A DNA stretch of 64,000 nucleotides from Verrucomicrobiia bacterium (GTDB lineage Bacteria > Verrucomicrobiota > Verrucomicrobiia > Chthoniobacterales > Terrimicrobiaceae). Each line of letters begins with the position of its first letter. Within the stretch, counting starts at the first letter, position 1. A program made the position numbers and the translations under genes. The notes under the pieces were generated by a model that ran no database searches, was not told the DNA's origin, and saw nothing but the letters and a program-made list of their open reading frames with translations. The DNA lies in assembly GCA_037128135.1 (NCBI GenBank), contig JBAXXD010000008.1:1482-65481 (forward strand), given 5' to 3'. Shown here in pieces: positions 23,026-64,000 of the stretch.

Positions 23026-25314
23026 CTATTTTTCCGCCAGCTCGAATGGGATCGCCGGGAGGAGTCCCATGGAAGAGTGATACTCGCCGTCCGGCTTCTC
23101 GTTTTTCCCGGGGTTCCGCCGCGCGATCAATTCCACAATCAGATTTCCGCGCGTGCCGGGCTTGGCTTTTTCGGAGTCTGCCCGGAATGCGATTTCGACC
23201 CCGTCGTCGCAGGGCGAGACCCCCTCGACCGAGATGCCCTCGGGGGGATTTTTCAGCTCCGCCTTCATGCCGTCCTTGCGGGTGGACTTGGGGAGAAGCA
23301 CGGTGGCAAGGCCGCCGGTGGCGGAGGAAATTTTTACCGGCCCCGGCGCGACCTGCAGGGGGGTTCTCGGAGAACGGCCCGGGGGCGAATAGGCGAGCAG
23401 CTCGGTGGACGGAACGAGGTGATGATAAATGAAGGCCTGGAGCATGTCGTCGGCCGGCACGGCCTTGCGGGCGACCTGTGCGCCCGCGATCTCGGCGGTG
23501 CCCGTGATTTCGATGCGCTCGGGCGCGGGCTTCGGCGGGTTGGGGAATGTGAGCGTGGTCGTGACCGAATCGCTTCCCGCCGGGATGCATCCGCCGGAAA
23601 GCACGAACCCTTCGGGCGCGACAGAAAGCCGGATGTCGCCCGAGAACCCGTCCTTGCGCAGCGCATGAATGGTCACCGGCACCGTGACGCCCGGCGCGCC
23701 GTTGATCCCGGAGGGAACCACGCGGAGCGCGAAGTCCGGAGCTGGACGGGAGATCCGGAGCCGATAGGAAAATTCCGGCCCTCCCTGCCGCTGGGCATCG
23801 CCCAGATGGACATAGAAAATCCCGTTCGAGGGCGGCTCGAAAAAAATCCGCGAGTCCGCATGGTGGGTGAGCAAGCCGGATCCCATGTCCTCCTGGTCGT
23901 CGCTGTAGGCAAGCTGCCGGCCGGCGGCGTCGGTGATCCGCAGGAAAGAATCCAAGGGGGAGTTGAGCCTGCGCGCAAACACTTCGAACACGAGGGGCTT
24001 TCCCTTTTTGCCTTTCACGGCAAAGACATCGGTGTCGCCGGGCGGCTCGATGCGCCCGTTGATCGTCATCGGCACCGCCACGAGCGCGGCGTGGCCGGTG
24101 TCGTTGTCGGGCTCGACCGAAAAGTCCTCCGGAATCGTGTCGTGCGCGAAGGCGACATCCATCGAGAAAAATCCGTTGGCAAGTTGGGGTACGGGTTGGA
24201 TGCCTTCGCCGGGCGGCACCTCGGCCGAGAGCATCTGGCGCGGAAGATTCCATCCGGAAACTTCGACCGTCGTCGCCGAGCCGGCACTCCCGCCCAAGGG
24301 AAAGATTCCCGTGACAAAAGGAATGCGCCCTGCGGTGATCCGGTAAACAAAATCCTCGCGCCCCCGGTGCAGGGCATCGCGGATTTCCAGTTGATAATCC
24401 CCGCTCTCTTTCACATCGAAAGCCAGAACGGGATCGGGCGCGAACCGCGCGGATTGCGCCGACGCCACTTCGACGCCGGCGCTGTCAAAGACCGTGAGCA
24501 CAGCCTGAAACCAGCCGGGCACGGCGTCGGCAAGGTAGGGCATGAGATCGCGCGCCTGCGCAAAAAAGACCAGCCGCTCCCCCCTGTCCGCGTGAAAAAA
24601 ATACCGGTCGCTTTGCCCGGGCATGATCTGCCCGTTGAGAACGACGGGGAAGCGGATCGTCGGCGGAGACGGAGGTGCCGGATCGGTCGGCGCCGGACGG
24701 AGCTCCTCCGGAAAGGTGCCGACAAAAATGGCCAGCGGATTCGAGAGCCCGTTTTTTCCGAACAGCCGCAGCGTGCGCGGACCCTTCGGCGCATCGGCGG
24801 CGATTTCCAGCCGGAGGGTCACCGACTCGGCCAGTTGCTTGTTGTCCTGCCGCTTCGGATCGTTGCGCTGGTTCTGCATGATCTTGAACAGGCGGATCTC
24901 CTCTTCCGTGGCACCATCCTCCTGCAAAATCGCGGCGATGTCCTCCTTTTGGTTTTTTTTGGCAGTTCCGGCCTGGATCGCTTCCATCCTTTCTTTCCGG
25001 TGCTCCGCGAGGGCTTCACGGAATTCCTGGGCGCGCTTCCCGGGAAGCGGCCTGCTGTAGCCGACAACCGTGACCTGAACTCCCTCACCGGAAATCATGG
25101 CGGAGGTCATCTTCTCCAGGTTCTGTCCCCCGACCAAAACCTCAACAACCGATCCCATTTTCCCCCCGGCCGGATAGACGTAGGCCAGGCCGGGTTCGCT
25201 CGAGCGCTGCGCCGGGCAAAGCCCGTTGGAAAAAAGGATCCCCAGGACTGCTGCCGCCTCCAAAAAAAACCGGGTGCCTCGGCGAGGCATCCCTACCGGC
25301 GCATGGGGCCTCAC
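23026..25314 (-). CDS. secreted protein with two pre-peptidase C-terminal (PPC)-like repeats
   Basis: 762-aa ORF (GTG start overlapping the upstream stop, GTGA). N-terminal hydrophobic signal. Two PPC-like units (SDRYFFHADRGERLVFF...VFDSAGVEVA; DTDVFAVKGKKGKPLVFEV...DSFLRITDAAGRQLAYSDD). Confidence 0.75.
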   Translation of the reverse strand: MRPHAPVGMPRRGTRFFLEAAAVLGILFSNGLCPAQRSSEPGLAYVYPAGGKMGSVVEVLVGGQNLEKMTSAMISGEGVQVTVVGYSRPLPGKRAQEFREALAEHRKERMEAIQAGTAKKNQKEDIAAILQEDGATEEEIRLFKIMQNQRNDPKRQDNKQLAESVTLRLEIAADAPKGPRTLRLFGKNGLSNPLAIFVGTFPEELRPAPTDPAPPSPPTIRFPVVLNGQIMPGQSDRYFFHADRGERLVFFAQARDLMPYLADAVPGWFQAVLTVFDSAGVEVASAQSARFAPDPVLAFDVKESGDYQLEIRDALHRGREDFVYRITAGRIPFVTGIFPLGGSAGSATTVEVSGWNLPRQMLSAEVPPGEGIQPVPQLANGFFSMDVAFAHDTIPEDFSVEPDNDTGHAALVAVPMTINGRIEPPGDTDVFAVKGKKGKPLVFEVFARRLNSPLDSFLRITDAAGRQLAYSDDQEDMGSGLLTHHADSRIFFEPPSNGIFYVHLGDAQRQGGPEFSYRLRISRPAPDFALRVVPSGINGAPGVTVPVTIHALRKDGFSGDIRLSVAPEGFVLSGGCIPAGSDSVTTTLTFPNPPKPAPERIEITGTAEIAGAQVARKAVPADDMLQAFIYHHLVPSTELLAYSPPGRSPRTPLQVAPGPVKISSATGGLATVLLPKSTRKDGMKAELKNPPEGISVEGVSPCDDGVEIAFRADSEKAKPGTRGNLIVELIARRNPGKNEKPDGEYHSSMGLLPAIPFELAEK

Positions 25315-26657
25315 ATGATCTCCTTCAGGCGGCCGCCGGATTTTATGTTTCCTTTCATCTCGGGGATCAGGCGCACCGCATCATCGCCGACGTGCGGGAA
25401 TGTGCCGTCGGGGTTGATCCCGAGCAACTCATACATGCTGCCGAGGAGATCCCAGGGATAGACCGGGCGTCCGGCGACCTCCTCGCCGGTGGCGTTCGAC
25501 GCGCCGACAACGTGTCCGCCCCGGAACCCCCCGCCGGCGACCAGGACGGAAAAGACCTTGCCGAAGTGGCCGCGGCCGCCATTCCAGGGAGCTTCCCACT
25601 GCACCCGCGGGGTGCGGCCGAATTCGCCCCCGCACCAGACGATCGTGCTGTCGAGCAGGCCGCGATCCGCGAGATCCTGAAGCAGCGTGGCGAGCCCCTG
25701 GTCAAGCTCGGGAAGTTTTTTGTTCATCGCCTGGAAGTGCTCCTTGTGGGTGTCCCACCCCTTGAAGTTGATGGTGACAAATTTGGCGCCGCGCTCGACG
25801 AGCCGCCGCGCCGCGAGGCACGACTGGCCGAACGTATTGCGTCCATATTTATTGCGGAGCTCGTCGGGCTCTTTCGAGAGATTGAAAACCTCGGCGCCGT
25901 CGCCCAAGATCATGTCGTAGGCCGCGTCGCCGCATTGGCGGAACTCCGCGAACCGCTCGTCGTTGGCGAATTGTTTCCCGAGCGTGTCCAGCCGGCCGAG
26001 CAGTTCGCGCCGGGTCTTCTGGCTCTCGGGGGTAATCCCCTCGGCAACGATCCCCTCGACTGCCCACGGGGTCTTGGCCGGATCCCCTCCCGTGGCAAAC
26101 GGCTTGTAGCGCGGCCCCAAAAATCCGGCCTCGGAAAACCTTCCCTGTGTCCCGGTGAGAACGATGTAGGGCGGGATCAGACCTTTGTATCCGGCGTCAA
26201 ATCCTTTGAAGAGCGACACCACCGCGCCGATCGATGGATAGACCAGCCGCTCCCCCTCGGGATGCCCGGTCTGCATCATGTAGGCGGCGGTCTCGTGGCT
26301 GCTGTTTCCGTGGGTCATGCCCCGGATGAGAGAAAACTTGTCGGCCTGCTGCGCGAGATTCGGGAGGAGCTTGCTCAGCTGGATCCCATCCACATTGGTC
26401 GCGATCGCCTCGGTGAGCGGACCGGCATACTCGCGCCCCGCGTCGGGCTTCGGATCGAAGGTGTCGAGGTGGCAGGATCCGCCCCAGAGCCAGATCTGGA
26501 TCACCGCGTTGGCGCGCGGCGCCGCGCCGGCCGCTTCGGGCGCGGCGGCAAACCCCGACAACTGCCCGAGCACCACGGCGGCTGCGACAAGCAGGTCGCG
26601 GAGGAAAAGCGCGGAACGAAAAACTTCCGGGGAATGCCGAAAAAAAACGGGTTTCAT
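25311..26657 (-). CDS. DUF1501 domain-containing protein (sulfatase/phosphatase-like fold)
   Basis: 448-aa ORF with an N-terminal signal. Characteristic IQIWLWGGSCHLDTFDPKPDAG and WCGGEFGRTPR motifs are present. Confidence 0.9.
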   Translation of the reverse strand: MKPVFFRHSPEVFRSALFLRDLLVAAAVVLGQLSGFAAAPEAAGAAPRANAVIQIWLWGGSCHLDTFDPKPDAGREYAGPLTEAIATNVDGIQLSKLLPNLAQQADKFSLIRGMTHGNSSHETAAYMMQTGHPEGERLVYPSIGAVVSLFKGFDAGYKGLIPPYIVLTGTQGRFSEAGFLGPRYKPFATGGDPAKTPWAVEGIVAEGITPESQKTRRELLGRLDTLGKQFANDERFAEFRQCGDAAYDMILGDGAEVFNLSKEPDELRNKYGRNTFGQSCLAARRLVERGAKFVTINFKGWDTHKEHFQAMNKKLPELDQGLATLLQDLADRGLLDSTIVWCGGEFGRTPRVQWEAPWNGGRGHFGKVFSVLVAGGGFRGGHVVGASNATGEEVAGRPVYPWDLLGSMYELLGINPDGTFPHVGDDAVRLIPEMKGNIKSGGRLKEIM

Positions 26658-26661
26658 AGGA

Positions 26662-28257
26662 TCAGTGTCGGTAAAGAAATTCCGGGCTGTTCATGAGCGC
26701 CCAGGCAACATCGAGCATCTTCTGGTTTTTTCCAGTTTTCTCCGACGCTTCAAAGGCGGCGATCGTGGCGAGTTCCTCGGCCGTGGGTTGCCGGGAGAGG
26801 ATCGTCAGGTAGAGAAGTGAGACGGCCTCCTGCGAGCTTTTGGTGCCGCCGATCAGCGCGGCGAGCTTTTTGCTGTTGTTGATTTTGGAAAGAATGCTGC
26901 GCGAATTCAGCAGGCTCAGGCGCTGCGTGGTGGTGATCTTCAGCGTCCGTTCCGCAAGCAATCCGGTGTCGCGCGGCGGGCGTCCGAACAGCTCGAGGAA
27001 CGAGCTTGTGATGCTGCCGTCGGGCACCGTGATCGCCCGGGTTTCGTCCGGAAGAAACGTGAACGGCTCGGGGATCATGCTCATATATTCCTCGTGGGCT
27101 CCGGTGATCCGGTTGATGGCGTCGATGAGGACTTCCGCCTCGAGGCGGCGGACCACATACGGGCCCTCCTCGCTCTTCCCGCCGGGCGGGATCGTCGAAC
27201 GCTGGTAGGTTTCGGAATTCAGAATGATCCGCAGTAGTTGCTTTGTGTCGTAGCGGGCCGACTCGAGCTGCCTGGCCAGCCAGGCGAGGAGCGCGGGATT
27301 CGAGGGGGGATTGTCCGGCCGGCTGTCATCGGGCTCCTGGATGATGCCCTTGCCGAAAATCCAGAACCAGAGCCGGTTGGCGGCATTCTTTGCAAACGGG
27401 GATTTCGGGGAGGTGGTGAGCCACTGGAAAAAAACCTCCCGGGGATCCACATTCGGATCCAGCCTGGCTTCTGTCCCGTCGGGCAGGAGGGCCACTGCCG
27501 GACGATCCCGCTCGTTGCGCGAGCTGTCGAAGAACACGATCTCCTCTTTCCATTCTTTGGTCTTCTTGAATCCGACGCGGGAAAAAAACCGTGCGAGGCC
27601 GGCCCGTTTTTCCGGCGTCCAGTTTGCGGTGCGTTCGCCCAGGAACGTGAGGGCAGCGGCGGCCGCGAGCGCCTCGGGTTCCCGGCTGCCGGCGGCGCGG
27701 AGGAAGTTGACCTCCGGATCCCGGAAATTGCTGCCCTCGGATGTCAGCAGCCGGCGGGCGAACTCCGTGCAGGACATATTCTTCCGGAGGCTTGCGCGGA
27801 TCCATCCGTCGTATGCCTGGGCCGCGTTCGGCCAGAGGTTCACCGGAAATTCGGATTTGACCCGCAGGATGTCCCCCCACTTCATTCCCCAGTAATCCGC
27901 ATACTCGGGGCGCTCGAGCAGGCGGTTGATCAGCTCGCCCCGCTTCCCTTCGCTCTTGTCATCCAGAAACGCGGCGGCCTCCTCTTTGGTCGGCAAGGTT
28001 CCGATGACATCCAGAAAAACACGGCGCAAAAAAACCGCGTCCGAACACGACCTCGCCCGGCGGCCTCCCGCTGCCATCTGTTTTGCAACCAGGATGTCGA
28101 GGGTCGCGGAAACCGGAGAGATGAGCCGCACGACGGGCTCTCGCTCGAAGGGCAGAATCGCGGAATCCGCCGCAGCTCCGCAGGCCGCGATTCCCAAGAA
28201 GAGTCCCGAAGCTAAAAAAAATCGCATGGCCGGGCTGCAATGGGTGTTTCGCCGCAC
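26662..28257 (-). CDS. DUF1549/DUF1553 domain-containing protein (PSCyt2/PSD1 type)
   Basis: 531-aa ORF with a signal peptide. DUF1549-type DAVFLRRVFLDVIGTLPTKEEAAAFLDD and DUF1553-type NPALLAWLARQL...LLRIILNSETYQRS. Its stop lies 4 nt before the DUF1501 start. Confidence 0.9.
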   Translation of the reverse strand: MRRNTHCSPAMRFFLASGLFLGIAACGAAADSAILPFEREPVVRLISPVSATLDILVAKQMAAGGRRARSCSDAVFLRRVFLDVIGTLPTKEEAAAFLDDKSEGKRGELINRLLERPEYADYWGMKWGDILRVKSEFPVNLWPNAAQAYDGWIRASLRKNMSCTEFARRLLTSEGSNFRDPEVNFLRAAGSREPEALAAAAALTFLGERTANWTPEKRAGLARFFSRVGFKKTKEWKEEIVFFDSSRNERDRPAVALLPDGTEARLDPNVDPREVFFQWLTTSPKSPFAKNAANRLWFWIFGKGIIQEPDDSRPDNPPSNPALLAWLARQLESARYDTKQLLRIILNSETYQRSTIPPGGKSEEGPYVVRRLEAEVLIDAINRITGAHEEYMSMIPEPFTFLPDETRAITVPDGSITSSFLELFGRPPRDTGLLAERTLKITTTQRLSLLNSRSILSKINNSKKLAALIGGTKSSQEAVSLLYLTILSRQPTAEELATIAAFEASEKTGKNQKMLDVAWALMNSPEFLYRH

Positions 28258-55348: not shown

Positions 55349-55394
55349 TTACCGCCCTCCACAAAAAATTCCCCTTAACTTACTCCGTATTAAT

Positions 55395-56291
55395 ATGGCT
55401 GAACCGAAAAAGGAAACCGTTAGAATTGTTCTTCCCGCGCGCCGCGACGGCCTGCCTGTGGCCTCCACTCCGCGCGAAACGGCAATGATTAATCTTCCGG
55501 CCAAGCCGATGCCGGTTGCCGGCGGTTCCGCCCCGGCGGCTCCCTTTGGCCTCCGGCCGCCGGCCCCGTCCGGCCTGACGCCTCCCCCTCCGGCGATTCC
55601 CAGGCCGCCCTCGATGCCGCCGCCGCCGATGACGGCCGCTCCCACGCCGCCGTCCGTTCCGTCGTCGATGGCTTCCGTGACGTCCATTCCGAAGCCTCCT
55701 TCGACGATGACGCCGCCCTCGGTGCCGCCAGCGACGTCCATTTCGAAGCCGCCCTCGACGATGACGCCGCCCTCGGTGCCGCCGGAGACGTCCATTCCGA
55801 AGCCGCCCTCGGTGCCGGCGATGCCGTCCATTCCGAAGCCGCCGTCGAGTGCGGGCATCGGGGTTCCGCCGGTTGCGCCGACACTCACGCGTCCGGTGCC
55901 GCCTTCGGCACCTCCGGCACCGGCCGTTTCGCCCGCAGCTCCCAAGCCTCCGACGATTTTGCCCGGCGCATCGATTGCGCCGCTTGCGCCGAAGCCGCCC
56001 TTGGGTGGAGGATCTCCCGTCAAGCCCGTCGCCCCGGCTCCTCTCCAAGCCGAAACGAAAAAAGAGACGGCGAAGGTTCCGGCATCCGCGCCGGGAACCA
56101 AGGCGGGTCTGCCCCAGGCCACCGTTCAACTGCAGAGGCCGGCGGCCACCTCGAAGTCGCTTTCCACCAGCGGTGTCATTGTGGTGCCGCCGGGCGACTC
56201 CTCTTCCGAACTGAGCCCGGTGCTGGGCATTGCGGCGCTGGTCGTCGCGCTGCTTTCGCTCGGCGTTCAGCTCTGGATGATGCTCGCCTGA
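55395..56291 (+). CDS. proline-rich, C-terminally anchored protein
   Basis: ATG 55395 (the ORF-track start 54933 is antisense to purA). MAEPKKETVRIVLP N-terminus, ~250 aa of P/S/T/A-rich sequence, and a terminal TM (LGIAALVVALLSLGVQLWMMLA). Confidence 0.7.
   Translation: MAEPKKETVRIVLPARRDGLPVASTPRETAMINLPAKPMPVAGGSAPAAPFGLRPPAPSGLTPPPPAIPRPPSMPPPPMTAAPTPPSVPSSMASVTSIPKPPSTMTPPSVPPATSISKPPSTMTPPSVPPETSIPKPPSVPAMPSIPKPPSSAGIGVPPVAPTLTRPVPPSAPPAPAVSPAAPKPPTILPGASIAPLAPKPPLGGGSPVKPVAPAPLQAETKKETAKVPASAPGTKAGLPQATVQLQRPAATSKSLSTSGVIVVPPGDSSSELSPVLGIAALVVALLSLGVQLWMMLA
55679..55848 (+). repeat. in-frame 54-nt tandem repeat (about 3 units) inside the Pro-rich gene
   Basis: Units begin at 55679, 55733 and 55787 (GACGTCCATT(C/T)CGAAGCC...). 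They encode TSIPKPPSTMTPPSVPPA-type 18-aa repeats. The third unit is shortened. Confidence 0.8.
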
Positions 56292-56799: not shown

Positions 56800-58458
56800 T
56801 TGACTTCTTCTCCGCCAAACTCCGCCGTCTGGGTTGTCATTCCCGTGCACAACAACGCGGGGACAATCCGGGATGTTGCGCTTGGCTGCCGCGGGATCGT
56901 TGGCAATGTGCTGATCGTGGATGACGGCAGCCGGGACGCCGATCTGCGCGAGTTGATGTCCGGCACCGGTATCCCCGTGATCCGGCACGAGACGAACTGC
57001 GGCAAGGGGGCGGCGCTTCTCACCGGTGCCCGCGAGGTCGCGAAACGCGGCGGGACGACCATGATCGCGATCGATGGCGACGGGCAGCATGACCCGGAGG
57101 ATCTCCCGGCATTTCTTCAGACCATCCAGGAGGATCCCGACGCGATCATTATCGGCGAGCGCGACATGAGCGGCGCGAATGTCCCCGGCAGAAGCCGGTT
57201 CGGGCGGAGGTTTTCGGATTTCTGGCTCCGGCTCGAAACGGGTCTGCCGCTCCGCGACACGCAGAGCGGATTCCGCGCCTATCCCGTACGCCATTTGCTC
57301 GCGCTACCGGCCTCGGGACGCAAATTTGATTTCGAAGTGGAAATTCTCGCCCTCGCCGCCTGGGCCGGACTCACGATCCGCAACGTTCCGATCCGGGTCT
57401 GGTATCCGCCTCCTCACGAGCGCGTCACGAGCTTTCGTCCGTTCCTGGACAACCTGCTGCTCACGCACCGCCACGTGCTCATCGTGCTGCGCCGCGTTCT
57501 TCCGCTCCCGCACAGGAAGCTTGTCGCTGGCACCGCGGATCCGGCCCGGAGGAAGCGCGGCAACGCGCTCGGCTTCTGGTTTTTCACCACCGCCGTCCGG
57601 CTGACCGGGCTGCGCGGGGCCTACGGGCTTCTGTTTTTTGTTAGTGCATGGTATGTGGTGTTCGACTCCTCGATCGTGCTGGCCGCGCTGGCGTATCTCA
57701 GGCGGCGGTTCCCAGCCGATGGTCTGCTGCGCCAGCGATGGAACGTCTATCAGCTTTTCATCGCGCAGGGCCGGTGCCTCATCGACCGATACTACCTCGT
57801 GCACGGCGGCGACCGCCTCCGCTTTCACCAGAGTGGCTTTGAAAAAGTCGCCCCGCTTCTCGCCGGCGAGCGCGGCTTCATCCTGCTCACCGCACACGTC
57901 GGCAACTGGCAGTCCGCCATGATCTCGCTCGAGGGATGGAACAAAACCGTCCACCTCCTGATACGCCCGGACGACGACGACCTCAGCACAAAAAAATTCG
58001 GCCTCTACCGGGAGTCCGGCCGCATCCGGACTATTAATCCCGCCGGCTACCTCGGCGGCGTGATCGGCGTGATGGCCGCGCTGGATGCGGGGGAGATCGT
58101 CTCCGTGATGGGCGACCGGGATTACAACACGCGGCGCAAATCGGCCGCCGAATTTTTCGGGGCGCCCGCCGAGTTCCCGTGCAGCGGGTTCCTCTTTGCC
58201 CATGCCGCCCGCGTCCCGCTCGCCGTGCTTTTTTCCGCCAAGACAGGGACCTACGAATATGAGGTGCGGATCGCGGGGATCATCGAGCCGCTTGCCGGGG
58301 AGCCCAAGGCCGCGTTCCTGCGCCGCGGGGTGCAGGAATACGCCGCGTTTCTGGAGGAGCATCTCCGGCGGTATCCGCTCCAGAGTTTTTTGTTCAAGGA
58401 TGTCTGGACGGGCGCGGCGTCTCCCATTAGCGTGCCGCAGACAATCGATCCGCGATGA
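56800..58458 (+). CDS. fusion protein: GT2 glycosyltransferase + LpxL/HtrB-type (lysophospholipid) acyltransferase
   Basis: 552-aa ORF (TTG start). N-half: VVIPVHNN...IVDDGSRD...DGDGQHDP (GT2). C-half: TAHVGNWQ (HxGNW(E/Q) acyltransferase motif) preceded by TM segments. Confidence 0.8.
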   Translation: MTSSPPNSAVWVVIPVHNNAGTIRDVALGCRGIVGNVLIVDDGSRDADLRELMSGTGIPVIRHETNCGKGAALLTGAREVAKRGGTTMIAIDGDGQHDPEDLPAFLQTIQEDPDAIIIGERDMSGANVPGRSRFGRRFSDFWLRLETGLPLRDTQSGFRAYPVRHLLALPASGRKFDFEVEILALAAWAGLTIRNVPIRVWYPPPHERVTSFRPFLDNLLLTHRHVLIVLRRVLPLPHRKLVAGTADPARRKRGNALGFWFFTTAVRLTGLRGAYGLLFFVSAWYVVFDSSIVLAALAYLRRRFPADGLLRQRWNVYQLFIAQGRCLIDRYYLVHGGDRLRFHQSGFEKVAPLLAGERGFILLTAHVGNWQSAMISLEGWNKTVHLLIRPDDDDLSTKKFGLYRESGRIRTINPAGYLGGVIGVMAALDAGEIVSVMGDRDYNTRRKSAAEFFGAPAEFPCSGFLFAHAARVPLAVLFSAKTGTYEYEVRIAGIIEPLAGEPKAAFLRRGVQEYAAFLEEHLRRYPLQSFLFKDVWTGAASPISVPQTIDPR

Positions 58459-58784
58459 ACCACACCGATTTCTCCAGCGAAGAGCTCCTGCCGAAAGTCC
58501 GGGCCAGGCTCAAGGAGCTCCTTGTTTCGCACCTCGCGCTGGAAGACATCACCCCGGAGGAGATCGGCGACGATGAAGCGATTTTCGGCGAGGGACTCGG
58601 GCTCGATTCGCTCGACGGCGTGGAAATCGTGGTGCTGCTCCAGCGGCAGTTCGGCGTGAACATCAAGGAGACCGAAAAGGGGAACGACCTCTTCCGATCG
58701 ATCAATACGCTGGCGAAATACATCGTCGAAAATTCCCCGAATCCGCTCGGGGTTCCCGCCGCCGCCTCCGAAGACGAAAAGTAG
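58455..58784 (+). CDS. acyl carrier protein
   Basis: 109-aa ORF whose start overlaps the upstream stop (ATGA). Phosphopantetheine site LGLDSLDGVEIV. Confidence 0.85.
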   Translation: MNHTDFSSEELLPKVRARLKELLVSHLALEDITPEEIGDDEAIFGEGLGLDSLDGVEIVVLLQRQFGVNIKETEKGNDLFRSINTLAKYIVENSPNPLGVPAAASEDEK

Positions 58785-58788
58785 CTTT

Positions 58789-59976
58789 GTGGCGGCGATT
58801 GGCATCTCGGGGCTGGGGGCGGTTTCCTCGCTTGGCAACACGATCCCCGAGACACTGGAATCATTTCGCGTTGGGCGCACCCGGCCGGGCAGGCTGACGC
58901 TGTTCGAATCGCCGCTTGATCTTCCGGTCTTCGAGGCTGCGCGGTTTCATGCGGAGCACCCATACTCCGACGGCCACCGCACGCGGGAGATGGCGCTGCA
59001 TGCGGCGCGCGAGGCGCTGGCGGACGCCGCGCTCGACCGGACCGCTCTCGACGCCGCACGGGTCGGCATCTGCCTCGGCACAACGGTCGCCAGCCAGCTC
59101 AACGACCTCGCGTTTTACCGCAGCTACAAAACCACCGGCACGGCGCCCCTGGCCCCGGTGCGCCGCTATCTCAAGGGCAATCTTGCCGAGGCGGTTGCCG
59201 CCGGGCTGGGCGTTCGGGCGATCACCGCCACTGTCACAAACGCGTGCTCCTCGGGCGCCGATGCCATTGCCATCGGCGCGCAATGGATCGAGGCCGGGCT
59301 TTGCGACATCGTGCTCGCGGGAGGAGCGGATGAATTGAACCGGGTGCCGTTGAGCGGATTTCATGCGCTCGGCCTGAGCAGCCCGCTTCCGTGCAGGCCG
59401 TTCGACAGGCGCCGGAGCGGGCTAAACCTCGGGGAAGGTGCGGGCGTCCTCATTATGGAATCCCCCGCACATGCCGCCGCCCGCGGACATGCTCCCCGCC
59501 TCGCGCTCTGCGGGCACGGCACCGCGTGCGACGCGCACCATCTCACCGCCCCGCATCCCGAGGGGCGCGGACTGAGCGCCGCGCTCGAGCGGGCGCTGGA
59601 TCTCGCCGGACTGCGACCCGGCGACATCGCGTTCGTCAACGCGCATGGCACCGGGACGCAGGACAACGATCTCATCGAGGGCCGCGCGCTCGCCGCCGTC
59701 TTCGGCCACTCGTTGCCCGTGCTCTCGACCAAAGGCTTCACCGGCCACACGCTCGGGGCGGCGGGCGGTTTGGAAGCCGTCTTCACCGGACTCGCCCTCC
59801 GCGAACGCTGGCTCCCGCCCAGCGCCGGATTTGAGGAGCAGGACGAACGCATCCCGATCACCCCGCTCAGCGAGCGCACGGAAATTTGCGGGCGGTTTGC
59901 GATCTCCACCTCGCTCGCCTTCGGCGGCAACAACACCGCCCTTTTGATCGGCCTCACCGAAGGGGGCGCACCATGA
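58789..59976 (+). CDS. beta-ketoacyl-ACP synthase (FabF-like, catalytically complete)
   Basis: 395-aa ORF (GTG start, 4 nt after the ACP stop). Cys-His-His triad: NACSSGADA, AHGTGTQ, GHTLGAAG. Confidence 0.9.
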   Translation: MAAIGISGLGAVSSLGNTIPETLESFRVGRTRPGRLTLFESPLDLPVFEAARFHAEHPYSDGHRTREMALHAAREALADAALDRTALDAARVGICLGTTVASQLNDLAFYRSYKTTGTAPLAPVRRYLKGNLAEAVAAGLGVRAITATVTNACSSGADAIAIGAQWIEAGLCDIVLAGGADELNRVPLSGFHALGLSSPLPCRPFDRRRSGLNLGEGAGVLIMESPAHAAARGHAPRLALCGHGTACDAHHLTAPHPEGRGLSAALERALDLAGLRPGDIAFVNAHGTGTQDNDLIEGRALAAVFGHSLPVLSTKGFTGHTLGAAGGLEAVFTGLALRERWLPPSAGFEEQDERIPITPLSERTEICGRFAISTSLAFGGNNTALLIGLTEGGAP

Positions 59977-61043
59977 CCGCATTCCTCAACGGCATGGGAA
60001 TCGTCGCCTCCACGGGACGGGGCACGGCCGCCCTCCGATCGGCTCTGCAACAGGGTTGGCGGCCGCCCAACACGATCGCGCTGCCCGATGGACGCGACCT
60101 GCCGGTTTACCCGCTGCCGCCCGACGCCCTCGACGATAAATCGTTCGGACGCAAAATCCGCCGCGCCGACCGCCTCGCCAGGATGGCCGTGTTGGCCGCT
60201 GCCGACGCCCTCCGCGATGCGCGGATCCAGCCCGACCCGCGCCGGATCGGGCTCGTTGTTGCCAGCGCGTTCGGCTCCCACGCCACGACGTTTGAATTCC
60301 TCGACGAGATCCTGACCTACGGCGACGCGGAGGTTTCGCCCACCGTCTTCTCCCATTCCGTCCAGAATGCCGCCGCCGCCTATGTGGCGTCCGTCCTCGA
60401 TATCCAGGGTCCGGTGATGACGCTCACGCAAGTCCATTTCGCTTTTCACCACGCGCTCGTCCTCGCCCGCCAATGGCTGGACTCCGGGCAATGCGACCAC
60501 GTGCTCGTCGGAGGCGCTGACGAACTCGGCGGCGTCATGCGGTTCATCTGGCGGTCGCTCCTTCGCGCTCCGGCCGACGGACGGCTCCGCCCGTTTGCGT
60601 TCGCAAAAGAACCCGCGGCAATTCCCGGCGAGGGGAGCGCATTTTTTCTGCTCTCCGCCAAGCCCGGTCCCTGCGCCTGCGCGAGGGTGGAACTGATCCG
60701 GATCGCCTCGTGGGTTCCGCCCGCCACGCCGCCCGGTCTGCACATCCTGGAAGCCGACGGGACGCTCGGCGACGAATCCGGCTACGCGGCCCCGGCGGCA
60801 TCCGGCGCGCGCCTCGCCGCCTATGCGCCGGTTTTTGGCAGCATGCCCTGTGGCACCCCGCTCCAATTGGCCGCCGCCGCGCTCATGCTCCAGGAGCAGG
60901 TCTGCTTCGCGACGCCGGTGCCCGGGGACTCCGGGCTCCCCCTCTGCCTCGCCACCGCGCCCCAGCCACTCGCCTCGATCCATCTCACCCGCCTCCACTG
61001 CAACGGCTCGGCGGCACACATCCAACTCACCCATCACAATTGA
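59973..61043 (+). CDS. ketosynthase-like partner lacking the active-site Cys (chain-length-factor-like)
   Basis: ATG 59973 overlaps the KS stop (ATGA). TLTQVHFAF replaces TVTNACSSG. No HGTGT or GHxxGAxG. The SPTVFSHSVQNAAAAY motif recalls the KS-N-terminal-like (Ketoacyl-synt_2) family. Confidence 0.8.
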   Translation: MTAFLNGMGIVASTGRGTAALRSALQQGWRPPNTIALPDGRDLPVYPLPPDALDDKSFGRKIRRADRLARMAVLAAADALRDARIQPDPRRIGLVVASAFGSHATTFEFLDEILTYGDAEVSPTVFSHSVQNAAAAYVASVLDIQGPVMTLTQVHFAFHHALVLARQWLDSGQCDHVLVGGADELGGVMRFIWRSLLRAPADGRLRPFAFAKEPAAIPGEGSAFFLLSAKPGPCACARVELIRIASWVPPATPPGLHILEADGTLGDESGYAAPAASGARLAAYAPVFGSMPCGTPLQLAAAALMLQEQVCFATPVPGDSGLPLCLATAPQPLASIHLTRLHCNGSAAHIQLTHHN

Positions 61044-61051
61044 CCACCATC

Positions 61052-61315
61052 ATGACGAACGCTCCCGCCGCCAGTGAAATCGAACGCGCACTCCTCACCG
61101 AAATCTCCGGCATGTTCCCGGAGGTTCCCGACATCACCTCCGCCACGCCGCTCCAACAGCTCGGGCTCGACTCGCTGCGCCTCTTCGGGATTTTTGTCCT
61201 CATCGAAAATCAATTCGGCCTGAGACTTCTCGACGGCCCTCTCACCCGAGAAATGCTCGAAAACATTTCCTCCCTCGCCGCCGAGACCGCCCGCCGCCTC
61301 GCCGCCGAAGCCTGA
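61052..61315 (+). CDS. acyl carrier protein (second copy)
   Basis: 87-aa reading from ATG 61052 (the ORF-track 60710 start overlaps the upstream gene). LGLDSLRLFGIF phosphopantetheine site. Confidence 0.8.
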   Translation: MTNAPAASEIERALLTEISGMFPEVPDITSATPLQQLGLDSLRLFGIFVLIENQFGLRLLDGPLTREMLENISSLAAETARRLAAEA

Positions 61316-61504
61316 TCCCGCGCCGCAAGGAGCCCCTCCTAAATCAGCGCGGATGATCAGGATTTCCGCAGATTCCCAAAGCTTGTTCCTGGTGGAATCA
61401 CGCAGAGCGGAGTTGGTTGGTTGCCCGGCCCGCCGGTTTCCGAACGCACACAAGGGCCGGAAATCAAACTTGACGCCAAATCGAGAGTTCCGCACTCTCA
61501 TACA

Positions 61505-64000
61505 ATGAATTTGGCAACTTCAGATAGTGTAGCAAATGCCGGGACGGCCGCGTGGAAAATGTTCCGGCCGGCCGGCGGCGAAACAACATCCCGTTTGAGC
61601 GGATCCACGAAGGCGCTGGCGGCGAGGTATCTTTCCGGCGAGATCGGCCGCTCCATGACGGAAGACAGCCTTCATCTGTCCATGCCTGGATATCATACAT
61701 TTTGCGAGTGGGAGTGTGACTGGACGCTGGCGGGTCCGCTGATGAACAGCAGTGATTCTCCGGACGGATTGGCCGCGGAAGATTTGCTGTTAGATGGCGC
61801 TCAGACGATGGAGGAGGTCAGGCTTTCAGCAAACGTCCTGCCGGAATGTTTTCATAGTGTTCATGGAAAAATCCATTTCAAGGAATTGTTCAGTTCCGCC
61901 AAAGTTCATTCCGCCGCCTATTGCTTCACAGAAATAGATACTGCTTCCGCCTGCCTGCTGCCCTTAGTGCTTGATGGCGACTGGTATTGTTCCCTATTCG
62001 TCAACGGCGAGCTGAAACACACAGGGGCCGGATGGTCCAAAATCATGAGACTTCCGCTGAAAGCCGGCCGGAATTTGATCGGCTTTCGTATTACGGGCGG
62101 TTCCGGCGGCTGGCGCGTGGTTCTGGCCAAAGGAGAATTTCTACCACTCGAAGAAAAATGCCGGGAGCCGGATCAGGCGGAGCTGTATGCGGAAGCCGTC
62201 CGATTGATCGCCTGGAATGCTCCGCTGCGGATCATCGATGGCGAAAAATTAGTTGGTGCCGCAACGCTCAAAAAAGCGATGCGTCACATCGTTCCAGCTC
62301 TGTGCTGCACTTCTGTCAGCCACACGACATTGGATTTTGAGAAAGCGCTTGCCGTTGGTTACAAAGGCATCAGGGCGGAAATTGAAGAACGGCTTTCCCG
62401 CGGCGGGCTGGATGAATGCGGAAACACGCTTCTTCACGCGATGCTTTCCTGTCTGGATTCAGCGAAAATTTGGCACGGCAGATATCTCGATGCGTTGAAG
62501 AAACTTGCCGGCGAAGGCAAAAATGATCTCGCTGGCATCATAGAGTCGTTGAATAACGTGCCGGAAAACCCGCCGGAGACGTTCCGGGAGGCGGTGCAGT
62601 CGTTGTGGATGTTATGGGATTTCCAGCGGCTGTGCGGCAACTGGAGCGGCATCGGACGGATCGACAAAATGCTTGGGCCGTATCTGAAACGCGATCTGGC
62701 GGCCGGCATAATCGACAGAGATGAGGCGCGGGAGCTGATCGCCCATTTCTGGATAAAAGGTTGTGAATGGATCACCGCGAATGCTGGCTCGGATAACGGC
62801 GATGCCCAGTTTTATCAGAACATCGTTCTCGGCGGGGTCGATGAAGCCGGAAATGACGTTGCTAACGAAGTCACTTATCTCGTCCTGGATGTCGTCGAAG
62901 AACTGCATATTTCCGACTTTCCCATCGCGGTCCGCATCTCGAAAAAGACAGATGAAATGCTTCTGCGCCGGATTGCGGAAATCCAGCGGCTCGGCGGCGG
63001 GATCATCGCGGTTTACAACGATGACCGGATTATTCCGAATCTGGTCCATTTCGGATACCCGCTGGCGGATGCCAGAGATTTTGCCAACGACGGTTGCTGG
63101 GAGATCCTGATCCCCGGCAAAACCTGTTTTGGCTACCTCGCTTTCGACGCCCTGAAAATCCTCCAGGACGTGCTCGGACTCGATGCTTCAGACGCCGACC
63201 TCAGCCAATACACCTGTTTCGATGAGTTATTCGAAGGTTTTAAGATAAAACTGAACAACCAAATCGTGCAAATGACCAGCCGTGCGGTTACAGCATTAAA
63301 AAACAATGTCACCCCCACTGTGCTGGTCGATATGCTGATTGACGGCTGTATTGAAAAGGGGCGTTCGTATTATCATCTCGGCCCGAAATACACGGCAGAG
63401 TCGCCACACGCAGGGGGGCTTCCGGACGTCGCCAACAGCCTGCAAGTGATCAAGAAACTGGTTTATGAAGATCAGGAATTTTCTCTGGCAGAACTGGCTG
63501 ACATTCTCCGTAACAACTGGGAGGGGCATGATGAAACCCGCCGGAAAATCTGTTCGCGCTTTGATTTCTACGGCAACGATTCGGAAGCCAGCAACGCGAT
63601 GATTCAAAAGGTTTTTGATGCTTACACCGGTCTGGTCGCTGAAATCCCTTCAAACGACGGGGTGCTTTTCCCTGCTGGAATCAGCACCTTCGGACGCGAG
63701 GCCAGTGCTTTTCTGCCGGGCCGGACAGCTTCGGCGGCGGGATCCAAAAAAGGAGATATTCTGGCGTTGAATTTCAGCCCGTCGCCCGGCACCGACAAAA
63801 GCGGCCCCACCGCCGTCATCAAGTCGCACTGCGCGGTGGACTTTTCCAGGCTGCCCGGCGGCACCGCGCTGGAATTGAAGATCGTTCCTTCGTCATTACA
63901 GGGAGAAAAGGGGATTGCCGCGCTGGTTGGACTCATGAAGACCTTCGTCGATCTCGGCGGAATATTCATGCAGATTGACGCGATGGATACCGCGATGCTC
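61505..64000 (+). CDS. glycyl radical enzyme (PFL-like/glycerol-dehydratase family) with ~215-aa N-terminal extension; 3' end outside window
   Basis: Translated by hand. The frame is open from 61343 to the window end, so it is absent from the ORF track. Motifs: DAQFYQNIVLGG, FANDGCWE (GCxE thiyl loop), ISTFGREASAFLPGRTASAAG, GGIFMQIDAMD. The start is uncertain (ATG at 61505, 61559, 61655 or 61682). Confidence 0.85.
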   Translation, partial: MNLATSDSVANAGTAAWKMFRPAGGETTSRLSGSTKALAARYLSGEIGRSMTEDSLHLSMPGYHTFCEWECDWTLAGPLMNSSDSPDGLAAEDLLLDGAQTMEEVRLSANVLPECFHSVHGKIHFKELFSSAKVHSAAYCFTEIDTASACLLPLVLDGDWYCSLFVNGELKHTGAGWSKIMRLPLKAGRNLIGFRITGGSGGWRVVLAKGEFLPLEEKCREPDQAELYAEAVRLIAWNAPLRIIDGEKLVGAATLKKAMRHIVPALCCTSVSHTTLDFEKALAVGYKGIRAEIEERLSRGGLDECGNTLLHAMLSCLDSAKIWHGRYLDALKKLAGEGKNDLAGIIESLNNVPENPPETFREAVQSLWMLWDFQRLCGNWSGIGRIDKMLGPYLKRDLAAGIIDRDEARELIAHFWIKGCEWITANAGSDNGDAQFYQNIVLGGVDEAGNDVANEVTYLVLDVVEELHISDFPIAVRISKKTDEMLLRRIAEIQRLGGGIIAVYNDDRIIPNLVHFGYPLADARDFANDGCWEILIPGKTCFGYLAFDALKILQDVLGLDASDADLSQYTCFDELFEGFKIKLNNQIVQMTSRAVTALKNNVTPTVLVDMLIDGCIEKGRSYYHLGPKYTAESPHAGGLPDVANSLQVIKKLVYEDQEFSLAELADILRNNWEGHDETRRKICSRFDFYGNDSEASNAMIQKVFDAYTGLVAEIPSNDGVLFPAGISTFGREASAFLPGRTASAAGSKKGDILALNFSPSPGTDKSGPTAVIKSHCAVDFSRLPGGTALELKIVPSSLQGEKGIAALVGLMKTFVDLGGIFMQIDAMDTAML

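Follow-up and report, generated by a model that had tools for sequence, protein, structure and literature searches.

What can five genes that resemble the core of an aryl polyene (APE) cluster do when none of the usual tailoring or export genes lies beside them? We addressed this question for a block of the window, the 64,000-nucleotide stretch of DNA analyzed here, which comes from a Verrucomicrobiae metagenome-assembled genome (MAG). We consider it likely that the block is the ApeJ/ApeE-like ACP/ApeO-like KS/ApeC-like dead partner/ACP2 part of a dispersed cluster that is contiguous in close Verrucomicrobial relatives. The initial annotation had described five coupled genes on the same strand of a PVC-type genome, coding for a KS, a dead KS-like partner, two ACPs, an acyltransferase, and a GT2 domain. 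The source of the MAG fits this description, re-reading the open reading frames and all four junctions gave the same coordinates (Table 1), and the Pfam searches and the alignment with FabF agree with the parts. The start codon (ATG) of ACP1 overlaps the stop codon of the fusion (ATGA, 58455-58458), and a second ATGA overlap joins the KS to its partner (59973-59976). The two remaining junctions are gaps of 4 nt between ACP1 and the KS (58785-58788) and of 8 nt between the partner and ACP2 (61044-61051). As had been noted, the neighbors are trxA upstream (TIGR01068, 2.6e-33) and a PFL-like glycyl-radical enzyme downstream.

Table 1. Genes of the block and regions of its first product, with positions in the window
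Feature	Position (nt)	Strand	Residues	Description
ApeJ-like GT2+LpxL-type fusion	56800-58458	+	552 aa	TTG start, as in NCBI protein MEI6070755.1
Fusion, N-terminal domain	56827-57444	+	~aa 10-215	GT2, Dpm1/ArnC/GtrB type
Fusion, middle region		+	~aa 214-334	helical, probably membrane-embedded
Fusion, C-terminal domain	57802-58419	+	~aa 335-540	acyltransferase, LpxL/PatA type
ACP1	58455-58784	+	109 aa	ApeE-like; PF00550
ApeO-like ketosynthase (KS)	58789-59976	+	395 aa	GTG start; active site intact
Catalytically dead KS-like partner	59973-61043	+	356 aa	PF00109 + PF13723
ACP2	61052-61315	+	87 aa	second, more divergent ACP; PF00550 at 3.6e-5

The first gene product aligns end to end with ApeJ of E. 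coli (BLASTP, 27.6% over 561 aa, E 9e-46), and Pfam recognizes Glycos_transf_2 (PF00535, 5e-16) and Lip_A_acyltrans (PF03279, 4e-11) in it. When its family profile was compared with the PDB, the N-terminal domain matched ArnC (3.7e-13), DPMS (4.9e-12), and GtrB, and its matches are restricted to lipid-phosphate glycosyltransferases, while the C-terminal domain matched PatA (3e-6) and LpxM (4e-6). A Foldseek search with the AF2 model (pLDDT 83) led to the same proteins, ArnC and PatA (TM 0.77-0.79), LpxM, DPMS, and GtrB, which provide the closest solved folds for either domain. These are separate single-function proteins, whereas both activities would be fused here, as in ApeJ. The residues invariant across 16 homologs include D41 and D42, D92/D94 (DxD), Q155-S-G-F-R159, H366, and D439. 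Judged from its sequence, the protein is an ApeJ-like bifunctional membrane enzyme. The hydroxyl acylated by PatA is the 6-OH of a lipid-linked sugar, the position that also carries the acyl group in APE lipids. The acyl donor of the fusion is presumably acyl-ACP and not acyl-CoA.

We calibrated three NCBIfam models with E. coli proteins, which identified NF006617 as the model of ApeE (E. coli ApeE passes it with 89.5 bits), NF006618 as that of ApeO, and NF006587 as that of ApeR. Both ACPs carry the DSL serine motif. NF006617 is the top model for ACP1 (65.7 bits, below the cut-off of 70), which shares 38% identity with E. coli ApeE. The match of ACP2 to the PP-binding family is weak, NCBI annotates it as a phosphopantetheine-binding protein (MEI6070759.1), and its position in the block is conserved in five related loci (L009, L095, L096, L097, and L025).

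The KS matches both the N and C ketoacyl-synt domains of Pfam and, in the alignment with E. coli FabF, retains the complete active site, Cys164/His304/Lys336/His341/Phe401, including the gating Phe. Its top NCBIfam model is NF006618, with 297.9 bits and below the cut-off, and it reaches 260.5 bits on the fabF equivalog model, for which the cut-off is 493.75. With the E. coli proteins it shares 35% (ApeO) and 30% (ApeR) identity. In a neighbor-joining tree, with one FabF and one FabB as housekeeping references, it belongs to a clade confined to APE-like clusters, sister to E. coli ApeO and apart from FabF/FabB, which speaks against a housekeeping FabF. The partner had been described as catalytically dead, and indeed its residue in place of the Cys is His, that in place of His304 is Asp, and Lys336 and His341 are both absent. 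Pfam finds only ketoacyl-synt N and Ketoacyl-synt_2 in it, and its profile matches that of the KS with 99.7% probability over 315 columns. The family counts 179 clusters at 50% identity (E<=1e-30). E. coli ApeC matches the profile of this family with 82% probability (E 1e-5), against 7% for the short-CLF profile and <1% for those of catalytic KS. From these comparisons, we regard the partner as a full-length relative of ApeC and a presumed chain-length factor. ApeC is half-size (PMC8358021), whereas this protein comprises two thiolase halves and may therefore have a role beyond setting chain length. The proposed likeness to an APE core is thus supported along the block, by the alignment with ApeJ, by ACP1 and the KS scoring best on the ApeE and ApeO models, and by the match of the partner to ApeC.

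The lack of flanking tailoring and export genes was confirmed. We found no further Ape-like, KS, or FabG-like genes in the 64 kb, and no fabH, fabD, fabG, or fabZ near the block, using tblastn and Pfam on the other large open reading frames. However, the explanation first given for this, a minimal set without tailoring and export partners of its own, which would therefore borrow FabG/FabZ, did not stand, since most partner genes are on two other contigs of the MAG (locus-tag prefix WCS31). The first of them has two B12/radical-SAM genes along with genes for a DUF3261-like protein, an ApeI-like dehydratase, a 4HBT thioesterase, and a KS-CLF fusion. The other encodes an amine oxidase, an ApeR-like KS, an ACP, a PlsC acyltransferase, an AMP-ligase, a radical-SAM/SPASM/ApeP-like dehydratase, LolA, and an MMPL-like exporter. 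Since most of the missing partners are found at two other places of the same genome, we regard the block as one fragment of a split cluster.

We place the partner genes in the same MAG, a binned rather than a closed genome, because of consecutive NCBI accessions, shared assemblies, and an exactly coinciding breakpoint. The proteins of the window (MEI6070755.1, MEI6070758.1, and MEI6070759.1), the MMPL-like protein (MEI6072410.1, WCS31_11510; neighbor MEI6072408.1, WCS31_11500), and the KS-CLF fusion (MEI6073172.1) with the adjoining DUF3261-like protein (MEI6073175.1, WCS31_15385) are all labelled 'Verrucomicrobiae bacterium', and the linear relation between accession number and locus tag puts the window at ~WCS31_03115. 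Assembly ERZ27300065 is common to locus L102 and the window contig, and assembly ERZ27300082 to loci L103 and L098. The end of L098 (fragment A) is the exact start point of the ApeJ-like gene in L095. Each gene arrangement was found again in three or four independent assemblies.

In relatives that are 50-73% identical, the block sits within a cluster of ~17 genes, which includes two dehydratase parts and a second KS/CLF pair. In L095, L096, and L097 (fusion 73%, 71%, and 50% identical to that of the window), the block is preceded, in order, by rSAM-SPASM-ApeP, LolA, MMPL-like, DUF3261, ApeI, thioesterase, KS-CLF, B12, and B12-rSAM genes, and followed by those for a 439-aa unknown protein, an FAD oxidoreductase, and a B12-rSAM enzyme. 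Variants of the cluster surround the block in L010, L008, and L006. The downstream trio was found only on a contig (L109) from a sample that also contains the population of the window, and not in the NCBI MAG. The search for the missing genes elsewhere thus recovered what is essentially a split system, with two reservations: a dedicated ketoreductase was found neither in the three loci nor in the contiguous Verrucomicrobial relatives, and the system is not a standard E. coli-type APE cluster.

A self-sufficient block is rather unlikely, one in which KS/CLF and ACPs use the housekeeping FabG/FabZ/FabI and the fusion fixes the chain to a glycolipid with no other dedicated genes. The translational coupling, the purifying selection across all five genes, and the absence of related neighbors within 64 kb are in line with it, as is L009 (75% identical), where the same five genes are isolated amid entirely different neighbors. 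The lack of a dedicated ketoreductase in the Verrucomicrobial versions also fits, and under any reading FabG is probably borrowed. However, the dehydratase parts, thioesterase, ligases, second and third KS systems, LolA, MMPL-like exporter, DUF3261 protein, and radical-SAM genes are all on the two other contigs of the MAG. Furthermore, the sample of L009 also gave a contig (L112) that has the complementary genes but lacks the ApeJ block, and the other relatives with sufficient flanks mostly embed the block in a larger cluster.

A decaying remnant, left by a rearrangement that broke the cluster and set the five genes on the way to loss, is less probable still. Near the breakpoint of fragment A (L098) there is an IS66-family transposase, and a related population has an internally deleted FAD oxidoreductase (L111). 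Besides, dN/dS is somewhat higher in the 'isolated' pair of lineages (0.18-0.24) than in two lineages with contiguous clusters (0.10-0.15). However, purifying selection acts on all five genes: between the window and L009, dN/dS is, in gene order, 0.24, 0.19, 0.21, 0.18, and 0.35 (dS ~0.6-0.8), with values far under 1 at dS ~0.65. ACP2 (0.31-0.49) exceeds the other four genes. The five reading frames are intact, their coupling and catalytic residues are kept, GC3 (0.75-0.82) is typical for the genome, and the genes on the other two fragments are intact too.

Comparison with known systems shows that this one is a radical-SAM-rich relative of APE. It has in common with the APE clusters (ApeA-R) of E. 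coli CFT073 and Xenorhabdus doucetiae the architecture of the fusion, the ApeE-like ACP, the ApeO-like KS with an ApeC-related dead partner, and the two discrete ACPs; ApeR-, ApeD-, ApeH-, ApeI-, ApeP-, ApeK-, ApeL-, ApeM-, and ApeN-like genes are found at the other loci of the MAG. We did not find the ApeQ ketoreductase, the ApeB methyltransferase, ApeA, or ApeG in the window and these loci. In contrast with E. coli, the KS and ACP1 fall under the curated ApeO/ApeE cut-offs, the gene set is divided among at least three loci, and the ApeP-like part is fused to radical-SAM/SPASM. The KS-CLF fusion, two to three B12-radical-SAM enzymes, the 439-aa unknown protein, and amine-oxidase-type and FAD oxidoreductases come in addition.

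A similar mix occurs in the radical-SAM/phytoene-desaturase-like FASII loci of Kuenenia stuttgartiensis, Desulfotalea psychrophila, and Geobacter, a type first noted in 2009 (Rattray et al. 2009, PMC2649909). These have Cys-less FabF paralogs, extra ACPs, radical-SAM/B12 enzymes, a phytoene-desaturase-like oxidase, a phenylacetyl-CoA-ligase-like enzyme, a glycosyltransferase, and a large membrane protein, whereas the window has the ApeJ/ACP/KS/CLF block only and its host is not an anammox bacterium. One metagenome survey (PMC9902471) reported antiSMASH 'ladderane' calls in several phyla, among them Verrucomicrobiota, Desulfobacterota, and Omnitrophota. Ladderane biosynthesis is very improbable here, even if the KS with its inactive FabF-like partner, the dedicated ACP, the phytoene-desaturase-like oxidase, and the B12-radical-SAM enzymes are shared with anammox loci (PMC2649909; 10.64898/2026.05.19.726425) and a Brocadiia MAG has a KS/dead-partner pair of this kind (L052). 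These lipids are known from anammox Planctomycetes only, and Desulfotalea made none despite its syntenic cluster (PMC2649909). The non-anammox calls were treated as of unknown function (PMC9902471), and the Verrucomicrobial cluster has the attachment and export genes of APE type (ApeJ, LolA, MMPL, and DUF3261).

The trio of ACP, KS, and dead partner is also found in Chitinophaga (L065, L071, L077, and L083), accompanied there by a second KS that has a short CLF, a thioesterase, an ApeI-like dehydratase, a GT2 protein, an oxidase, and a ligase. These loci are of flexirubin type; the flexirubin (flx) cluster of Chitinophaga pinensis and Flavobacterium johnsoniae, in which FlxC, I, L, N, and O are listed as the five KS-like genes, is tied to an aryl polyene product (PMC3992019). 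However, the GT2 protein there has DUF2062 and no fused LpxL-type domain, B12-radical-SAM genes are absent, and the polyene of flexirubin is esterified to dialkylresorcinol. An active KS beside a full-length inactive paralog, with a dedicated ACP, is also seen in type II PKS KS/CLF and in the anammox pair amxFabF2/amxFabFmut (PDB 9S5H), where only the heterodimer decarboxylates malonyl-ACP. The latter (chain B against the KS, 4e-59; chain C against the partner, 1.7e-4) is no nearer to the block by sequence than ordinary FabF. Aromatic-PKS CLFs have Gln at the Cys position, where our protein has His, and the cyclases/aromatases of type II PKS are absent here. Primary fatty-acid synthesis, with the KS as the FabF of the organism and the ACPs as housekeeping carriers, can be practically dismissed: the solved structures nearest to the KS by sequence are FabF enzymes (1e-60) and its FabF-type active site is complete, but it scores higher on the ApeO model than on the fabF equivalog, its clade occurs only in APE-like clusters, its gene is coupled to those of a dead partner and an ApeJ-like enzyme, and the fab genes sought are not nearby.

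With the block read as part of a dispersed APE-related cluster, its most likely function would be the synthesis of an ACP-bound chain and the transfer of this chain to a sugar carried by a lipid phosphate; we infer all catalytic steps by analogy. The KS and its partner would form a KS/CLF-type heterodimer, like ApeO-ApeC and anammox FabF2/FabFmut, extending the chain on the ACP by decarboxylative condensation with malonyl-ACP. Enzymes encoded elsewhere would reduce and dehydrate the beta-keto group, perhaps FabG for the reduction, with the ApeI-like and ApeP-like parts as candidate dehydratases. The B12-radical-SAM and FAD enzymes may modify the chain in some way. It has been proposed that ApeJ transfers GalNAc onto a lipid phosphate and then itself acylates this sugar with the ApeE-bound chain (10.1101/2020.12.19.423268). 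Similarly to ApeJ in the APE lipids of Xenorhabdus, the GT2 domain would transfer a sugar from a nucleotide sugar to a lipid phosphate, of phosphatidic-acid type or polyprenyl phosphate, after which the PatA/LpxL-type domain would place the ACP1-bound chain on that lipid-linked sugar. The LolA, MMPL-like, and DUF3261 proteins of the other loci may then deliver the completed lipid to the outer membrane.

The resemblance to the core of an aryl-polyene (APE) cluster that had been proposed for this locus holds. The ORF listing and a direct reading of the junctions confirm five coupled genes on the same strand. Two of their junctions are ATGA overlaps (58455-58458 and 59973-59976); the other two are gaps of 4 and 8 nt. 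The parts list of a GT2-acyltransferase fusion, two ACPs, an intact ketosynthase (hereafter the block KS) and a dead KS-like partner (KSL) is upheld by Pfam and by alignment with FabF. The neighbours are indeed trxA upstream and a PFL-like glycyl-radical enzyme downstream. Annotation places no other APE genes alongside, and a tblastn search with all 18 Ape proteins of E. coli against the 64-kb window matched the cassette and nothing else. The source is the MAG of an uncultured member of the Verrucomicrobiae, in agreement with the PVC-type genome that had been supposed.

Genes of the block, and the two further cluster fragments of the same MAG
Feature	Location	Strand	Description
Gene 1, GT2 + LpxL-type fusion	56800-58458	+	552 aa, TTG start; Pfam GT2 and Lip_A_acyltrans
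Gene 2, ACP1	58455-58784	+	109 aa; Pfam PP-binding
Gene 3, block KS	58789-59976	+	395 aa, GTG start; Pfam both ketoacyl-synthase domains
Gene 4, KSL	59973-61043	+	356 aa; Pfam N-terminal KS domain and Ketoacyl-synt_2 only
Gene 5, ACP2	61052-61315	+	87 aa; Pfam PP-binding
Fragment A	L098-L101, four assemblies		DUF3261-like, ApeI-like, thioesterase, KS-CLF, B12, B12-radical-SAM
Fragment C	L102-L104, three assemblies		AMP-ligase, amine oxidase, ApeR-like KS, ACP, PlsC acyltransferase, AMP-ligase, rSAM/SPASM/ApeP-like, LolA, MMPL-like exporter

The remaining genes of the window are unrelated to the block (histidine kinase, GH1, DUF4838 proteins, MFS transporter, a DUF1501/PSD1/PSCyt2 trio, class I tRNA synthetase, MreBC, RNase G, purA, uppS). 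There are no tRNA genes or Rfam matches within the window, and a scan of it for promoters and terminators did no better than on shuffled sequence. At 23026-28257, genes for PSCyt2/PSD1 (DUF1549/DUF1553) and for DUF1501, a pair typical of Planctomycetes and Verrucomicrobia, lie beside that of a 762-aa protein without Pfam match. Two ORFs overlap on opposite strands at 55349-56291. Gene callers pick the Gly-rich one on the - strand (257 aa). The product of the + strand ORF is rich in proline, with repeats of PKPPS/TMTPPSVPP units and a hydrophobic anchor at the C-terminus; this ORF looks the more likely reading because its GC3 (0.77, against 0.71 for the - frame) is nearer the genome norm of about 0.8. 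The glycyl-radical gene (~61500-64000, running off the window end) has a GC3 of 0.62 against 0.75-0.82 in its neighbours, and overall GC falls to 0.54 in the last 2 kb of the window; this gene may have been acquired recently.

The APE cluster of E. coli CFT073 served as the reference set. Gene 1 has the architecture of ApeJ, a GT2 domain fused to an LpxL-type acyltransferase: the two proteins align end to end (27.6% identity over 561 aa, E 9e-46), share both Pfam domains, in the same order, and both score best on the PpgS model of NCBIfam. Searched by sequence against the PDB, the N-terminal domain matched solely lipid-phosphate glycosyltransferases (ArnC 3.7e-13, DPMS 4.9e-12, GtrB 1.7e-7). 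A single-sequence phmmer search of the acyltransferase domain against the PDB gave no meaningful match, and hence a family profile and a fold search were needed. The profile matched PatA (3e-6) and LpxM (4e-6). The fold search, with an AlphaFold model of the fusion (pLDDT 83, pTM 0.72), retrieved ArnC (2.7e-11) and PatA (TM 0.77-0.79, rmsd 3.5 A), followed by LpxM, DPMS and GtrB. Sixteen homologues of the fusion keep the DDGS, DxDGQH and QSGFR motifs, plus H366 and D439 in the acyltransferase half. For the ApeJ of Xenorhabdus, it was proposed that GalNAc is placed onto the phosphate of diacylglycerol phosphate and that the 6-OH of this sugar is subsequently esterified with the ApeE-bound polyene (10.1101/2020.12.19.423268). 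The domain matches of the fusion fit this proposal.

The E. coli Ape proteins were also run against NCBIfam to calibrate its PRK models (NF006618 for ApeO, NF006617 for ApeE, NF006587 for ApeR). The block KS is 35% identical to ApeO (1e-60) and 30% to ApeR, and its best model is NF006618, with 297.9 bits, under the cut-off of 407 (E. coli ApeO scores 556). For ACP1, the nearest Ape protein is ApeE (38% identity); it scores 65.7 bits on NF006617, just below the cut-off of 70 (E. coli ApeE scores 89.5). Judged from their sequences, the two proteins are thus ApeO-like and ApeE-like, yet outside the curated families. The initial annotation had raised the possibility that the KS is the housekeeping FabF, which we reject: it obtains 260.5 bits on the fabF equivalog TIGR03150, far under the cut-off of 493.75, and in a neighbour-joining tree of 99 KS-type proteins its clade is sister to the E. 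coli ApeO group, apart from E. coli FabF and FabB (one sequence each). All members of this clade come from APE-like clusters.

Alignment with E. coli FabF shows that the block KS keeps Cys164, His304, Lys336, His341 and Phe401. KSL has His at the Cys position, Asp at the His304 position, and nothing at the third catalytic position. Across its family (179 clusters at 50% identity, E<=1e-30), the residue at the Cys position varies (His, Asp, Glu, Arg, Gly, Tyr) and Asp is usual at the His304 position. The KSL profile matches that of the block KS with 99.7% probability over 315 columns, and both thiolase halves are kept. A BLASTP search of KSL against E. coli ApeC gave no match, and the relationship is seen by profile comparison only: ApeC matches the KSL profile with 82% probability (E 1e-5) and the short-CLF (chain-length factor) profile with 7%, and has no match to the profiles of catalytic KS. 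ApeC and short CLFs were compared here as separate profiles, since pooling the two overstated the link to KSL. Canonical ApeC is half-size (PMC8358021). KSL, with 356 aa and both halves, does not have this single thiolase fold, and the profile match therefore points to a full-length relative of ApeC.

We followed homologues of the fusion to the contigs that carry them. In L095 (73% identity), L096 (71%) and L097 (50%), the block lies mid-way in one long operon-like cluster. Before it are found a rSAM/SPASM-ApeP-like fusion, LolA, a MMPL-like exporter of ~800 aa, DUF3261, an ApeI-like dehydratase and a 4HBT thioesterase, and then a second KS and its short CLF, which in Verrucomicrobia are fused to each other, followed by a B12-binding protein and a B12-radical-SAM. 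After it come a 439-aa protein, a FAD oxidoreductase and another B12-radical-SAM, the latter preceded in L097 by an AMP-ligase. Variants of the same cluster surround the block in L010 (48%), L008 (62%) and L006 (Desulfuromusa kysingii). At least 80 further genome loci have this pattern, in many phyla, including Lentisphaerota (with the cultured Victivallis vadensis and Oligosphaera ethanolica), Desulfobacterota, Nitrospirota, Omnitrophota, Elusimicrobiota and Myxococcota. The trio of ACP, KS and KSL also occurs in flexirubin-type loci of Chitinophaga and, as a fusion, in Bacteroidales. A contig scan with the fusion alignment gave, among the matches listed, distant relatives only (<=58% identity on the GT2 part), and neither the MAG of the window nor its close relatives.

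The second KS and the short CLF form one protein of ~606 aa in Verrucomicrobia (L098 10001-11821; L095 5470-7308; L008 8196-10004) and are separate genes in Desulfobacterota, Nitrospirota and Chitinophaga; in Bacteroidales, it is the equivalents of the block KS and KSL that are fused instead (~570-750 aa). The radical-SAM/SPASM and ApeP-like dehydratase parts make a single protein of ~500 aa (L102 7820-9364; L095 1-845; L008 5784-7262). This fusion, of which we found no published description, is conserved across the cluster family and ties radical chemistry physically to the dehydratase step. The ~439-aa protein (L095 14480-15799; L109 5519-6838), directly after ACP2 in contiguous clusters, has no Pfam match. 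It has an invariant F-D-H-x-L-x-D-x-x-G-A motif, which we take to resemble the HxxxD of acyltransferases of the condensation and wax-ester-synthase type. The 431-aa protein of L102 is a different one.

The block stands alone, without the cluster genes around it, only in the window and in L009 (75% identity, quite different neighbours). We therefore searched with the KS-CLF fusion and the MMPL-like protein of L095. The matches include a KS-CLF protein (P0133, MEI6073172.1, 71% identical) and an exporter (P0260, MEI6072410.1, WCS31_11510, 74%), both from a "Verrucomicrobiae bacterium" MAG. The window proteins are MEI6070755.1 (fusion), MEI6070758.1 (KSL) and MEI6070759.1 (ACP2). Accessions and locus tags of this MAG are linearly related (WCS31_06585/MEI6071439, WCS31_11500/MEI6072408, WCS31_15385/MEI6073175; about 0.986 proteins per gene), which puts its first protein near MEI6070141 and the fusion gene near WCS31_03115. 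Hence, the window lies inside the same genome record as fragments A and C. The fragments also share assemblies with it and with each other: L102 and the window contig are in ERZ27300065, L103 and L098 in ERZ27300082. Tetranucleotide correlations of the window with L098 and L102 (r 0.976-0.986) agree with a single genome and are not discriminating, because the relative L009 scores 0.974.

Fragment A, in which the B12 gene has 421 aa and the B12-radical-SAM 457 aa (L098), stops exactly at the point where the ApeJ-like gene starts in L095. Right after this breakpoint are lplA, parB and an IS66-family transposase (L098 14674-17759), a hint that insertion sequences had a part in the break-up of the cluster. 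For the KS of fragment C, the best model is that of ApeR (396.6 bits, under the cut-off of 470); the MMPL-like exporter of this fragment has 803 aa (L102). Together, L098 and L102 hold much that the window lacks: the starter ligase, priming KS, ApeD-type acyltransferase and LolA/MMPL/DUF3261 set, the ApeI-like and ApeP-like dehydratase parts, the B12-radical-SAM enzymes, the amine oxidase and the rSAM-SPASM. The B12-radical-SAM and oxidase genes are contiguous with the block in L095, L096, L097 and L010. No ApeQ-like ketoreductase was found in the three loci of the MAG, nor in L095-L097. The downstream trio is present on L109, from a sample holding this population (a B12-radical-SAM, the 439-aa protein at 76% and the FAD oxidoreductase at 69-71% identity); it is not in the NCBI record of the MAG, and L109 is a candidate fourth fragment only. 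In L112, from the JGI sample that gave L009, the genes of fragment C adjoin those of the downstream trio (439-aa protein, oxidoreductase, radical-SAM), and there is no ApeJ block. Given this complementary content, the cluster is likely to be similarly dispersed in the L009 lineage.

These results do not support the idea of a minimal stand-alone pathway, as most partner genes are on two other contigs of the same MAG. It had been foreseen that the rest of the cluster might turn up elsewhere in the genome, and with fragments A and C this is essentially the case. The cassette forms a single piece of a dispersed cluster, whose family is recognised but chemically uncharacterised.

The separated block is unlikely to be a relic. 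All five ORFs are intact, with a GC3 of 0.75-0.82, typical of the genome. Pairwise NG86 estimates of dN/dS between the window and L009 are 0.24 for the fusion, 0.19 for ACP1, 0.21 for the block KS, 0.18 for KSL and 0.35 for ACP2 (dS 0.60-0.78). Between L095 and L096, two lineages with contiguous clusters, ACP2 has 0.31 and the other four genes have 0.10-0.15. The block genes are thus maintained by selection, which is perhaps slightly relaxed. In a related population of the same lake sample, the FAD oxidoreductase (L111 4556-4969) seems internally deleted (residues 35-133 and 350-389 of 394 align), and some lineages may be losing parts of the pathway.

A study of 2009 noticed this type of cluster in Kuenenia, Desulfotalea and Geobacter, and tabulated the Cys-lacking FabF deviation for Kuste3348 and for paralogues of R. 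baltica and Geobacter (PMC2649909). The window likewise has a Cys-less FabF paralogue beside an active KS and a dedicated ACP; the B12-radical-SAM and phytoene-desaturase-like oxidase of this type are shared too, in L098 and L102 rather than in the window. Unlike the APE cluster (ApeA-R), the window has no dedicated ketoreductase and dehydratase pair (ApeQ, ApeI/ApeP). A metagenome survey reported antiSMASH "ladderane" calls in Verrucomicrobiota, Desulfobacterota, Omnitrophota and other phyla, and treated their function outside anammox as unknown (PMC9902471). A ladderane product was considered and set aside as improbable, since these lipids are known only from anammox bacteria and the syntenic Desulfotalea cluster yielded none (PMC2649909). 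The minimal set of an aromatic type II PKS is dismissed because KSL has His, not Gln, at the KS cysteine position and Pfam reveals no cyclase or aromatase domains in the window or related loci. Our literature search found no published product of a radical-SAM-rich APE-like cluster.

Beyond the observed homology, active-site status, gene order and coupling, split arrangement and purifying selection, a route can be sketched by analogy. The block KS and KSL would form a KS/CLF heterodimer that extends the ACP-bound chain, as in ApeO-ApeC and in the anammox pair FabF2/FabFmut, which acts only as a heterodimer. Beta-keto reduction would fall to a ketoreductase encoded outside the three loci, possibly FabG, and dehydration to the ApeI-like and ApeP-like parts encoded elsewhere in the MAG. 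If the fusion works like ApeJ, its GT2 domain would put a sugar on a lipid phosphate and its PatA-like domain would move the ACP1-bound chain onto this sugar, with export via LolA, the MMPL-like protein and the DUF3261 protein. Tentatively, and with more doubt than confidence, we suggest that the radical-SAM-rich APE-like clusters of anaerobic PVC, Desulfobacterota, Omnitrophota and others make an undescribed class of outer-membrane glycophospholipids, whose polyene or acyl chain is remodelled by B12-radical-SAM enzymes (e.g., by methylation, cyclisation or cross-linking) in a route related to that of ladderanes, the block being an autonomous sub-pathway that builds the sugar-linked chain. If so, this autonomy would explain how the block could be moved in one piece and persist, as it has in at least two lineages.

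The stripped-down polyene or lipid pathway that the locus seemed to promise does not stand, and the direct value of the finding is therefore modest; the window itself gives no direct handle on the chemistry of the product. The case illustrates that a cluster may look "minimal" in a MAG window only because a single locus is viewed, here one of at least three pieces, each reproducibly assembled. The genes for ApeJ, ACP, KS and CLF keep their order and coupling and behave like one relocatable unit, which supports the idea that the KS/KSL pair and ACP1 feed the ApeJ-type acyltransferase. The wider KSL-type family includes cultivable hosts (Victivallis, Oligosphaera, Desulfuromusa, Desulfovibrio). 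Its clusters have ingredients in common with the loci proposed to make ladderanes in anammox bacteria, and solving the product of these clusters would bear on that question.
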